This document shows, piece by piece, positions 14,847 to 29,462 of a DNA stretch of 64,000 nt. Origin of the DNA: Candidatus Moraniibacteriota bacterium (GTDB lineage: Bacteria; Patescibacteriota; Minisyncoccia; Moranbacterales; UBA9337); assembly GCA_029865125.1 (NCBI GenBank), contig JAOUHN010000001.1, forward strand, positions 1,360 to 65,359. The letters are read 5' to 3'. The translations under genes were made by a program, and so were the position numbers. The notes beneath the pieces were generated by a model. That model was not told where the DNA came from and ran no database searches. It saw nothing but the letters and a program-made list of their open reading frames with translations. Within the stretch, counting starts at the first letter, position 1. Each line of letters starts with the position of its first letter.

Positions 14847-15200
14847 TTATTGATTACATTTCATGCATTTTTTCGCAGCAGGATAAATCTCCAATCTTTC
14901 TCTTCGAATAGCTTCGCCACACTCTTCACAAGCACCAAAGGTTCCGTTTTCAATTTTCTCCAAAGCACTTTTGATGTCTTTCAGTCTTTGTTCCAAACTA
15001 CTCTCCACTGAAATATTATCAACATATTCCTCAACCTCAGTTGCACTTTCATCTTTGTGTGTTCCCAACTCATCATGTCTAGTCTTAAAGTCATCTGAGT
15101 TTTCTGAAGGATTCGCAAATTTGCTCAATTCACTTCTCAGCTTGTCTCTTTCTTCTTCTAACATTTTTTTGAATTTTTCTTGCTCCTTTTCATCGAACAT
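14847..15200 (-). CDS. TraR/DksA C4 zinc-finger protein
   Basis: Coiled coil then ALEKIENGTFGACEECG...RLEIYPAAKKCMKC. Confidence 0.93.
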   Translation of the reverse strand: MFDEKEQEKFKKMLEEERDKLRSELSKFANPSENSDDFKTRHDELGTHKDESATEVEEYVDNISVESSLEQRLKDIKSALEKIENGTFGACEECGEAIRRERLEIYPAAKKCMKCNQ

Positions 15201-15295: not shown

Positions 15296-15691
15296 CTACT
15301 CGATAAAAATGCTTTCCAGGTGCTTTATTTTTTCACACCTTCGCTCTTCATCTAACCACACTGAAACTGCATCAAATCGATAATCACTTTCTGTCAGTTT
15401 ATTTTTCCTCAAATAAAAATTAGCAATTTTTTCCAGCTTGTGCAATTTCCTTCTGTCAATATTTTCTTCAGGAACAACCACTTCCCCAGGACGAACCATT
15501 CTTGTTTTCACCTCCACAAAAACAATACTATTTCCATCTTTGGCGATCACATCAATTTCTCCCAACCTTCTTCCTTGAGTATTTGAAAAATTAAACTCAA
15601 GAATCCTATAGCCTTTTTTCTTGAGATGTTTGGCCGCCAATTTCTCACCTAATTCTCCCGGACTATTTTCTTTTTTTCTCCAAAAAATCAT
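15296..15691 (-). CDS. yraN: YraN-family (UPF0102) endonuclease
   Basis: GELGEKLA..L..KGY.IL, GEIDVIA, VFVEVKTR, YRFDAV. Confidence 0.95.
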   Translation of the reverse strand: MIFWRKKENSPGELGEKLAAKHLKKKGYRILEFNFSNTQGRRLGEIDVIAKDGNSIVFVEVKTRMVRPGEVVVPEENIDRRKLHKLEKIANFYLRKNKLTESDYRFDAVSVWLDEERRCEKIKHLESIFIE

Positions 15692-15786
15692 AATTTTGGC
15701 GCATAATATAAAACATGAAACACTTCCTTGCAACTCCAACTACACTTCCTAATTTACTAATCAACTATTTCACTAATTAACTAAAA

Positions 15787-16400
15787 TAAAAAAACACCCT
15801 TTCGGGAGTCCACTTTCCTCTTTTTCAAAAAATCTTTTCTTCAATGACCCGGTTCAAATGAGGTATTGAAACCGGGCGCGAGGCCCAATATATTAAAAAT
15901 GTGGCTGCGCCCGGGATTTCACATGTACTAACGTGAAAGCCGGAAACTTTTTAGCCTGGGTGAAGAGGCATCGAAAGTTATGAGCCACACGTACTTTATG
16001 TACATGTCTTTATTTGTCACTTGCCCTAGCTTGCAAATGATATCTTTTACTGTCTTAAGGTTTATTACCTTTTTTAAAGAACTTATTTTTTTGTTTTTCT
16101 TTTTGTTTTTTTTCTTTTTCTTTTTCTTTTTTATTTTTGTTTTTGTTTTTTTAGTTCCCTGACTAGGATCAGGGAGGTCTTAGCTAACATGCTAGCCTCT
16201 TTGTCACCGAAGTGACAAAAAGTTCAGCTAACACTATCTGCTAAGACCAGAAAAACAGTAAAAGATCTTTCAACCACAATTAGGGGGTAGTTGTGGCTGA
16301 AAAAACTTGCACCGTTTATGGTGTTTTTTCAATTATCCGTGAATTTAATCCACAGGATTTTTATTTAGTTTTCAATGTTCTGCCCTCTCTCAACCTCACA
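15787..16400 (-). ncRNA. Candidate large structured non-coding RNA (~610 nt), family unknown
   Basis: Near-consensus promoter at 16406-16434; no credible ORF; many helices including GTCAC-TTCG-GTGAC and a long-range ATCTTTTACTG/CAGTAAAAGAT pair; terminal CCC-GAAA-GGG hairpin followed by a U tract. Confidence 0.6.
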
Positions 16401-16405
16401 ATACA

Positions 16406-16434
16406 ATTATAACAAAAAAATGGGTCTTGGTCAA
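16406..16434 (-). promoter_or_regulatory. Sigma70 promoter TTGACC-N17-TATAAT
   Basis: Reverse complement reads ttgacc aagacccatttttttgt tataat. Confidence 0.8.
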
Positions 16435-16583
16435 CACTGAAATACCTGCAGTCCTTTATTTAAGCCATTTTTGACAACTTATAAAAACTTTGTCATTTTT
16501 CAGAAAACAGCATTTTTTTGTCATTACTTTGCCTTATTTGCGCCTTCATGTCAATTTTTCTCCCCAGCTTATCCACAGAAAAA

Positions 16584-18152
16584 CTATTGATTCATATTCA
16601 TTTCTGCATTCATATTTTCATCCTCATCACTTTGCGTTGTATCAATGTTATCATTTGGCATTATTGTTTCATTCTCCACTTCAATAACAGGACTATCTAA
16701 AATAACAGGACTATCTAACATCCTATCAATAATCGCTCGCATGGAATTTTTGCTTGTTGCAATTACCAAATATCCGTTCATGAATGAATAATCAACAGAC
16801 AAAGCATTGTTCGTATCGATATTAAAATATCTGATATTCATTCCTCTATATTCACTATCAGAAAAGTTAATATTTTCTCCTGCAGAACTGAGCCCGGTAG
16901 CAAAAAACTCAGGAATCATACCAGGAATATCAGACTCTGATGCCATCAAAAGATTTTTTAGATCATTTTTATTTTCCTCTGTAACTTTCATGGAGATTGA
17001 TACTCTATCCACTCCATTGTCTCTAAATAAGAATAAGGAAAAATTATCAGTCAATTTCTCCATGGTTTGATCTGAAAAATTAAATTTTGTGATCGCAAAA
17101 AAATTGCCGAGTTTCATATCCGCATATTTGTTATCTGCCAAAACAAATTCAAATGGACCTGATTCACCAGCAGGAAATTCAGCAAATATTCTTTTTATTT
17201 CATTTCCTATGGTTTCACTCGTAGCAGCTTCAATGTCAACATTCAAATAATTTGGCATAGTAAGAGAATACTTGAATTCTTCTTTGACCACTTCTTCTTC
17301 TACTTCCTCGGTAACAGCTTCTTTTTCAACTGCAATTTCTTCAACTTCTGCACCCTTCATAAAATAGAAATAATATCCACCAAAAGCTGCTCCTCCCACA
17401 ATAATCAAAATTACAACACTCACAAAAACTTTTCTCCAACCAACTCTGGGACCTGGCTTGAATTCTTCTACTGGTTCCTGAGATGGAATGTCAACAACTT
17501 CAGCTCTCATTTCTACAGGTGCAGGAGTCGCCAATATTTCTTCTTTCTGTTCTGGCTTTACCGTTGATTGCAAATCATCACCAAAAGCCCCCACAAATCT
17601 TCCTGGTTCTTCTTTTCCAAATACACTTTTTTCTTCCACTGGAAGTTCTTCAGTAACTGACGGCTCTGGATAGGCTAAGATATCTTTCTCTGGAGAAATT
17701 TTCTCTTCTTCTGCAACTTCAACTGGCTCTAGTTTGGAAATATCTCTTGCTGATCTCATGTCCATAGATGGTGCAGGTTTTGGGCTCCACCCTGCTAATT
17801 CTGGCTCTTTTATTTCAGCTACTTCTTCGATTGGTTCTTCTTCTTTGATTTCTTGAGCAAATGGAGATTCTGCGCCAATAACTTCTTTTGTGCTCTCGAT
17901 TTCTCTTTCCAAAAATGGACTGTCTTGAGCAAGAACACCTTTGCCACCACCCATTTCTTCTGAAGTTCCTAGAGCACTCATTGAAGTTTCCGCGACTTCT
18001 CCTGAAGATATTTTTCCGCCTCCCTTAGTCACTTCCAAATCACTTTTCATGGTAAAAAATTTAACATCACTTGAATTGATTTTTTCATCTCCAGCTCCAA
18101 AAGGAGATTTGGAATCTCCTCGGGATTGTTTTATGTTTGAATTATTATCCAT
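16584..18152 (-). CDS. Hypothetical bitopic membrane protein with acidic low-complexity N-terminus
   Basis: 522 aa; E/P-rich N-half, single TM (VFVSVVILIIVGGAAFGGYYFYF); in-frame 18-bp duplication LDSPVI-LDSPVI. Confidence 0.85.
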   Translation of the reverse strand: MDNNSNIKQSRGDSKSPFGAGDEKINSSDVKFFTMKSDLEVTKGGGKISSGEVAETSMSALGTSEEMGGGKGVLAQDSPFLEREIESTKEVIGAESPFAQEIKEEEPIEEVAEIKEPELAGWSPKPAPSMDMRSARDISKLEPVEVAEEEKISPEKDILAYPEPSVTEELPVEEKSVFGKEEPGRFVGAFGDDLQSTVKPEQKEEILATPAPVEMRAEVVDIPSQEPVEEFKPGPRVGWRKVFVSVVILIIVGGAAFGGYYFYFMKGAEVEEIAVEKEAVTEEVEEEVVKEEFKYSLTMPNYLNVDIEAATSETIGNEIKRIFAEFPAGESGPFEFVLADNKYADMKLGNFFAITKFNFSDQTMEKLTDNFSLFLFRDNGVDRVSISMKVTEENKNDLKNLLMASESDIPGMIPEFFATGLSSAGENINFSDSEYRGMNIRYFNIDTNNALSVDYSFMNGYLVIATSKNSMRAIIDRMLDSPVILDSPVIEVENETIMPNDNIDTTQSDEDENMNAEMNMNQ

Positions 18153-29388: not shown

Positions 29389-29462
29389 AGCGGGGTGGAG
29401 CAGTCTGGCAGCTCGTGTGGCTCATAACCACAAGGTCGCAGGTTCGAATCCTGCCCCCGCAA
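29389..29462 (+). tRNA. Initiator tRNA-fMet(CAT)
   Basis: AGCGGGG-TGGAGCAG...GCTC; TGTGG-CTCATAA-CCACA; GCAGG-TTCGAAT-CCTGC; unpaired 1:72 and an A11:U24-type D stem typical of initiators. Confidence 0.92.

Follow-up and report, generated by a model that had tools for sequence, protein, structure and literature searches.

A structured RNA with features of rRNA precursors at a conserved chromosomal site in Moranbacterales and other Patescibacteria

Introduction

Several described RNAs and RNA segments resemble the gene that we study here. In the nut sites of phage lambda a boxA is followed by a hairpin, and the 6S RNA is a stand-alone, single-copy molecule forming a rod with a closing stem, a central bubble and a terminal stem. 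GOLLD and ROOL occur in phages and prophages near tRNA islands; with OLE they are large structured RNAs, and passages of PMC12286853 describe their kissing loops and disordered linker. In the precursors of ribosomal RNA (rRNA), NusB binds boxA and RNase III cuts the helices formed between leader and trailer, as set out in sections of PMC10250234.

Here, we analyse a window of 64 kb (the whole stretch of DNA examined, 64,000 nucleotides) from a Candidatus Moraniibacteriota bacterium with a genome of 1.03 Mb that is 92% complete. A first-pass annotation, made from the sequence alone, had proposed that the window encodes a stand-alone structured non-coding RNA of about 610 nt. Coordinates refer to the window, and all features of the RNA lie on its minus strand.

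Results

The RNA belongs to no catalogued family

Rfam 15, which the first-pass annotation had named as a check on its proposal, found no more than five tRNAs in the window and gave no meaningful match to the RNA; in homologous loci (20 searched at E<=1 and 18 at the gathering score) only chance-level matches fell on it. GOLLD, ROOL, OLE, raiA and the other motifs of Rfam 15 had no gathering-score match in the window or in the 38 homologous loci. The RNA is neither RNase P RNA nor tmRNA, as had been judged by eye: the RNase P model (RF00010) does not match the locus and the true gene (125 bits) lies on a different contig, while for tmRNA (RF00023) both ARAGORN and Rfam are negative at the locus, no tag frame is conserved, and the gene, like that of the 5S rRNA, is on another contig. 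The SRP RNA model (RF00169) found no match, nor did any SRP54 domain exceed the cut-off in this 92% complete genome. A phage collection held no match to the RNA, and the sole viral contig matching the motif of its hairpin L1 (see below) does so outside the context of the RNA gene. Full-text literature searches gave no description of such an RNA, although a partial motif could be listed in supplementary tables. This is a new class of structured RNA, matching no catalogued family.

One copy per genome across the order

BLAST searches of 101 relatives returned many noise matches to an A-rich tract together with 17 clear homologs sharing the promoter. A covariance model (R1) was then derived from 20 sequences of the 152-nt 3' core; its last short helix is one column out of register, which lowers the paired percentage. 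It matched once per genome in 112 of the 141 genomes of the order and in all 12 of its 12 families, with compensatory changes between them, so that the check on conservation and covariation named by the first-pass annotation came out in favour of its proposal. One family, f8, had a match to the core model in only 1 of its 18 genomes. The upstream gene was found in 14 of the 20 model-negative genomes queried, and where enough downstream DNA was available, 10 of 11 hold a variant recognisable by eye. The counts out of 88 given below come from a census covering 88 of the 112 matches, with patterns picked after the sequences were seen.

A gene with its own promoter in a fixed neighbourhood

The RNA gene fills the gap between a gene for a membrane protein and yraN, all on the minus strand. 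Its promoter (16406-16434), of the sigma-70 type with an extended -10, matches the consensus at 11 of 12 positions and is the best among 11 sites in 3.3 kb, a number of sites that is uninformative by itself (shuffle mean 10.5); the pattern recurs in 87 of the 88 loci. The 5' start would lie near 16399. At the other end, an imperfect intrinsic-terminator-like hairpin with one mismatch precedes a U tract (15788-15810); the hairpin is absent from the terminator-scan list, and a U tract occurs within 220 nt in 86 of the 88 loci. The RNA measures about 610 nt in the source genome and 393-719 nt in relatives (median 509, n=88). It folds with z = -9.1 relative to shuffles on the minus strand and -5.1 on the plus strand, and among 29 sampled members only 18 have the sense strand as the better-folding one. 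Homologs share no conserved reading frame, in line with the earlier finding of no credible open frame; a lysine-rich peptide encoded by the A-rich tract was rejected, ATG-led frames being present in 11, 6 and 5 of 79 members and scattered over three frames. Sixteen public sequencing runs carried only 0.04 of the words, and four of these, mapped at 80% likeness, left the RNA uncovered. We infer that the gene makes a stable RNA from its own strong promoter. Conservation, covariation, promoter and U tract leave little doubt that it is a real stand-alone RNA of the minus strand.

Upstream lies a single-pass membrane protein of no known family (16584-18152, minus strand; Pfam gave no family over the cut-off and only a faint match to DUF3352), with a homolog in the same position in 84 of 86 loci. 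This membrane-anchored family has matches at E<=0.001 in 227 of 251 genomes of the class, of which the weak ones may reflect low complexity. Downstream, the minus strand of the window carries yraN, a dksA-type gene, lspA and comM. The first-pass annotation had suggested looking for homologs upstream of yraN (UPF0102; 15296-15739), which follows the RNA directly in 61 of 85 loci of the order; the neighbour with the deepest conservation is instead the dksA/traR-type zinc-finger gene (14847-15200), next in 19 of 24 loci from other orders (proteins scanned; one locus added and one without an ORF in reach omitted). The RNA persists where the next gene differs. Genes for polynucleotide phosphorylase (pnp) and an RRM protein lie just upstream in the window. 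A DnaA-box-like site lies upstream of the promoter (16569-16578), and 46 of the 88 loci have an exact box no more than 260 nt away from it. Elsewhere in the genome, dispersed palindromic repeat families occupy intergenic regions (contigs C2, C13, C29, C48 and others), and the regions upstream of start codons are A-rich.

A strand-swapping stalk, kissing loops and a covarying 3' core

The minus-strand motifs of the first-pass annotation (promoter, boxA-like sites, three 5' hairpins and the terminal hairpin) lie within a base or two of where it had put them, and comparison added a 70-nt A-rich tract, kissing loops and two conserved C-rich loops. From the 5' end, a first boxA-like site (16369-16380; a loose pattern finds it in 76 of 88) is followed by strand A (16306-16316), by the hairpin L1 with a C-rich loop (16268-16302; loop present in 75 of 88 and missing in the other 13 and in short forms) and by strand B (16254-16267), which can pair with A or with the distant strand C (16042-16054). 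The B:C pairing corresponds to the long-range helix recognised earlier, at 16267-16254 with 16054-16042, and its pairs covary, as do those of A:B. Cognate duplexes are far more stable than permuted ones, both for A:B (-16.3 vs -8.5 kcal/mol, n=70) and for B:C (-17.9 vs -11.1 kcal/mol, n=70), and strands A and C both track changes in B. Database matches to the L1 hairpin are, among the matches listed (80 of at least 120), mostly to records of Moranbacteria, Parcubacteria or Patescibacteria. The hairpin also occurs in records titled Bdellovibrionales, Micavibrio and an archaeon (L142, L144, L176 and others), which are probably mislabelled or mis-binned Moranbacterales DNA.

The segment enclosed by B and C begins with a hairpin of lineage-dependent length (16176-16248) and a second hairpin (16156-16175) whose loop (16167-16162) kisses that of a hairpin on the far side of strand C (16017-16040; loop 16030-16025). 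The loop-loop pairs covary, an exact 5-nt complement is found in 36 of 53 testable members, and the cognate energy is -7.0 against -5.35 when permuted. Between them lies a single-stranded A-rich tract of six-base repeats (16083-16152; at least one block in 85 of 88), and then, in the loop closed by B:C, the second boxA-like site of the first-pass annotation (boxA 2, 16072-16083), close to the canonical consensus and present in 83 of 88. Directly 3' of it is a small hairpin with a covarying pair (16057-16071). This boxA 2, short spacer and small hairpin resemble a lambda nut site, the order of whose elements is given in part in PMC10250234, with the differences that the hairpin loop is variable here, that the RNA is free and that no N-like protein is known.

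The 3' core consists of a bulged rod (15922-16006) whose C-rich apical loop, L2, is nearly invariant (stem-loop 15969-15954; the full motif is found in 80 of 88 and the source genome departs from it at the last base), and of hairpin 3 (15872-15914), with a GC-rich stem, a 3'-side bulge, a short stem and an AU-rich loop, which is kept in all lineages seen. These replace the two 3' helices of the first-pass annotation (15989-15983/15906-15900 and 15876-15870/15854-15848), which belong to the lowest-energy fold of this sequence and are not among the covarying pairs. When 85 sequences are fitted to the model, two-sided changes affect 35 of the 36 modelled pairs of the core and pairing is seen in 89% of cells, compared with 71% in shuffles and 27-49% when slid, in an alignment that leans toward the model and among kin that are not independent. 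From a structure-free alignment of 87 full-length members the rod and hairpin 3 emerge again, along with L1, A:B, B:C, the hairpin after boxA 2 and the loop-loop pairing across B:C. A core folded as two local hairpins shows weaker covariation (7 of 27 pairs vs 18 of 36 for the rod). A pseudoknot between L2 and the loop of hairpin 3 was rejected, since the G run has its covarying partners inside that hairpin and L2 does not change. In the source genome, 15 bases of the rod (15977-15991) match exactly the anticodon arm of a tRNA-Met (29414-29428; E 0.5); the match is absent from relatives and likely due to chance. The structure of the RNA is under selection across Moranbacterales.

Shared design with rRNA precursors

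The rRNA-operon-like signals reported by the first-pass annotation have counterparts in the organisms' own rRNA leaders. The source genome has its 16S (C71:1624-3760) and 23S-5S (C44) genes in separate transcription units. Each of these has its own promoter, boxA and leader-trailer helix, and the 5S gene carries an insertion. The boxA 1 of the RNA is nearly identical to the boxA site of the 23S leader, and the 23S precursor has the same A/B/C design, in which an early hairpin can give way to a long-range helix. The stem of L1, leader-like in 57 of the 88 RNAs, matches a hairpin present in 24 of 25 16S leaders, which is the leader strand of the 16S processing stalk and pairs with the 16S trailer at -31.2 kcal/mol. 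The RNA thus has boxA sites, a strand-swap stalk and a hairpin stem in common with leader-trailer precursors (rrnTAC), but what it encloses is an A-rich tract instead of an rRNA, and the kissing loop that links this tract with the 3' side argues against a discarded spacer. BoxA 2 is close to the consensus, conserved and enriched, as for boxA sites of the rrn type, and is predicted to bind NusB-S10. The gene nusB is present and adjoins that of RNase III. Rho was not found in the genome; classical antitermination may therefore matter less. By eye, the RNase P gene of the source genome has a boxA-like leader too.

Some pairings of L1 with other RNAs were rejected. For the L1 loop with a G run in helix 11/12 of 16S rRNA, 50 of 300 shuffled versions of the loop performed equally well, and genomes with and without L1 both have the G run; a G run in the 16S leader of the source genome has no common place in relatives. 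L1 was also rejected as an anti-Shine-Dalgarno element, Shine-Dalgarno motifs being rare in this genome (five-base motifs before at most 4% of 580 long genes), although the 16S end keeps its anti-Shine-Dalgarno.

Reduced or rearranged relatives beyond the order

Under strict filters, the core model found no member outside the order among 150 genomes of the class except for one weak match (E 0.038), which sits directly behind a homolog of the upstream gene. Loci downstream of homologs of this gene in other orders contain related genes in 24 of 61 cases, mostly of 200-460 nt, with a promoter, a boxA inside or beside a stem, and hairpin 3; the shortest (about 200-250 nt) retain boxA, closing stem and hairpin 3 alone. 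Because a strict hairpin 3 pattern matched only 2 of 55 loci, these outer members were chosen by inspection and folding. Of the 24 loci, 19 have the canonical boxA heptamer, as against 5 of 124 promoter-downstream windows of the source genome; two of the others have a one-base variant and three were found by looser patterns. In f8 the canonical boxA is near the 5' end, not in the loop.

In other classes, a version of about 600 nt occurs in 4 of 17 loci behind the upstream gene (all in one family), two of them with the same L1 loop, and the architecture was recognised by eye in 5 of 28 loci preceding a dksA-type gene, one with a near-identical L1 hairpin and one with an L2-like loop. The core model gave these members E-values of 0.0013, 0.0023, 0.022, 0.046 and 0.55 (in 35 kb), one had no sense-strand match, and several lack the exact boxA heptamer. 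Many lineages have nothing at either the upstream-gene or the dksA anchor, and 19 of 30 dksA loci show no large upstream gap, so that the range is wide but patchy, or the gene has moved. Position and architecture weigh more than sequence in our assignment of the short and distant forms as homologous, and other Patescibacteria hold, at the same site, reduced or rearranged relatives of the RNA.

Discussion

Our preferred reading, to which we give a probability of about 0.35, is that the RNA mimics pre-rRNA, binds Nus factors and tunes rRNA synthesis in trans. Strand B would pair with A first and then swap to C, as in the 23S leader-trailer stalk, and the B:C helix and kissing loops would keep the A-rich tract and the near-canonical boxA unpaired. 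The boxA 2 loop thus displayed might bind NusB-S10, the A tract might bind NusA or S1-type domains, and factors needed by the rRNA operons would be stored or titrated, for instance when cells rest without a host; further contacts with protein or RNA could be made by hairpin 3 and by both C-rich loops. First, boxA 2 is retained in Moranbacterales and in other orders while its neighbours change partners. Second, nusB sits beside RNase III, and boxA 1, the A/B/C design and the L1 stem are common to the RNA and the rRNA leaders. Third, a DksA-type gene is a conserved neighbour, and DksA acts at rRNA promoters in E. coli. On the other side, so short a boxA might merely aid the synthesis of the RNA itself, as the boxA-like leader of the RNase P gene may remind us; boxA is displaced in f8 and the heptamer is missing in several members of other classes; Rho was not found; 13 of 88 loci and all short forms are without the L1 loop; the adjacency of dksA-like gene and lspA may be an ancient gene order unrelated to the RNA; and no reads cover the RNA in four runs poor in the words of this genome.

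A doubtful but serious alternative is that the RNA stands in for 6S or Ms1, binding RNA polymerase and, with its DksA-type neighbour, silencing transcription in resting cells. The 6S model (RF00013) matches neither the source genome nor the 101 genomes of the order searched, which leaves this slot empty, and the RNA is, like 6S, stand-alone and single-copy, with its own promoter, a long bulged rod, an AU-rich loop and the dksA-like gene next to it. However, its architecture is another one, without the closing stem, central bubble and terminal stem of 6S, it is two to three times longer in this order, and it matches 6S by neither sequence nor model. A permuted 6S was also rejected, as model R1 and a sequence profile went unmatched on doubled E. 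coli 6S, the one 6S sequence compared.

Rather unlikely, in our view, is an ornate scaffold, monomeric or multimeric, or a sponge that takes up A-binding proteins such as S1, the RRM protein or PNPase, as proposed for GOLLD, ROOL and OLE. The size, the kissing loops, the disordered A-rich linker and the two strands able to pair with B, possibly between molecules, are in keeping with it, and such features are described for ROOL and GOLLD in parts of PMC12286853; in one genome, that of the window, pnp and the RRM gene are close by. Yet members shrink to about 200-250 nt with only boxA, closing stem and hairpin 3, and no model of these families matches. The RNA differs from them in being chromosomal and single-copy, in a fixed neighbourhood across the phylum, with an internal boxA and with housekeeping neighbours in place of phage.

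The RNA could also act as an antisense in trans, with L2 pairing to a conserved seven-base site beside intrinsic terminators of rRNA leaders and switching read-through, much as in a T-box whose roles are exchanged. On the sense strand, 30 of 55 rRNA leaders (60 loci, of which 5 were dropped as unanchored or short) have the six-base core of this site that is complementary to L2, as against 1 of 55 on the other strand and an average of 4.9 for permuted hexamers. The site adjoins or competes with the leader terminators, and is found inside leader terminators of a few mRNAs; the short forms of other orders lack L2, and none of 14 16S leaders outside the order has the site at that distance. But cognate pairs have no advantage (-9.67 vs -9.57 permuted, with 84 of 300 permutations as good, n=44), RNA and rRNA leaders do not covary, two genomes have lost the L2 loop and keep the site, and changes on either side go uncompensated. 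23S leaders offer the site a partner in cis, complementarity between RNA and leaders in other orders is no higher than for non-cognate pairs, and kin are not independent. Genome-wide, the L2-complementary pattern is modestly above control, with at least 25 of 30 sampled loci in long open frames. Such a mechanism is therefore, on the whole, unlikely. The leaders deserve a remark of their own: in most rRNA leaders of the order (L369-L428), boxA is preceded by a hairpin resembling an intrinsic terminator, which in 23S leaders competes with an alternative pairing, and these terminators are possibly an undescribed attenuator of rRNA operons. In two genomes, a small gene (55-78 aa, two close cysteines and a hydrophobic tail; C3:42044-42400 and L440) lies behind a terminator holding the L2-complementary site.

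It is improbable that the RNA acts in cis, as a long 5' leader or attenuator for yraN, the dksA-like gene and lspA. The dksA-like gene or yraN is next on the same strand in most loci and the terminator is imperfect here, but in 17 of 87 loci the opposite strand carries the longest ORF of the 600 nt that follow, the downstream genes have promoter-like sites (15733, 15298), the RNA persists when the next gene changes, and there is neither a match to T-box or riboswitch models nor a fixed same-strand downstream gene. An untranscribed DNA element, origin-like or an array of protein-binding sites, is hard to credit, despite the DnaA-box-like site in 46 of 88 loci, the modest folding advantage of the sense strand (18 of 29) and the lack of reads in four runs with little of the genome's words, given the G-U pairs, the covariation of long-range and loop-loop pairs, a promoter and a U tract that lie in register, and a single exact DnaA box at this site among 46 in the genome.

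Neither SRP nor 6S is detectable in genomes of about 1 Mb that nevertheless retain a single copy of the RNA in a constant location, and this suggests a core function. It is rare for a widely conserved housekeeping RNA to be newly found in bacteria. Tentatively, this one might be an ancient and hitherto undescribed housekeeping RNA of Patescibacteria, with full-length forms in several classes and shortened ones in others, controlling ribosome synthesis in trans as a decoy for Nus factors, in Moranbacterales also by pairing with terminator-bearing rRNA leaders, and filling a role in growth control of the 6S type. Its covarying structure, natural short forms and named candidate partners make it tractable in vitro. 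Tied as it is to boxA, rRNA leaders and a DksA-type gene, it offers a handle on how these bacteria of the CPR switch between host-attached growth and a free resting state, and it may be an overlooked regulator of ribosome production in ultra-small parasitic bacteria.
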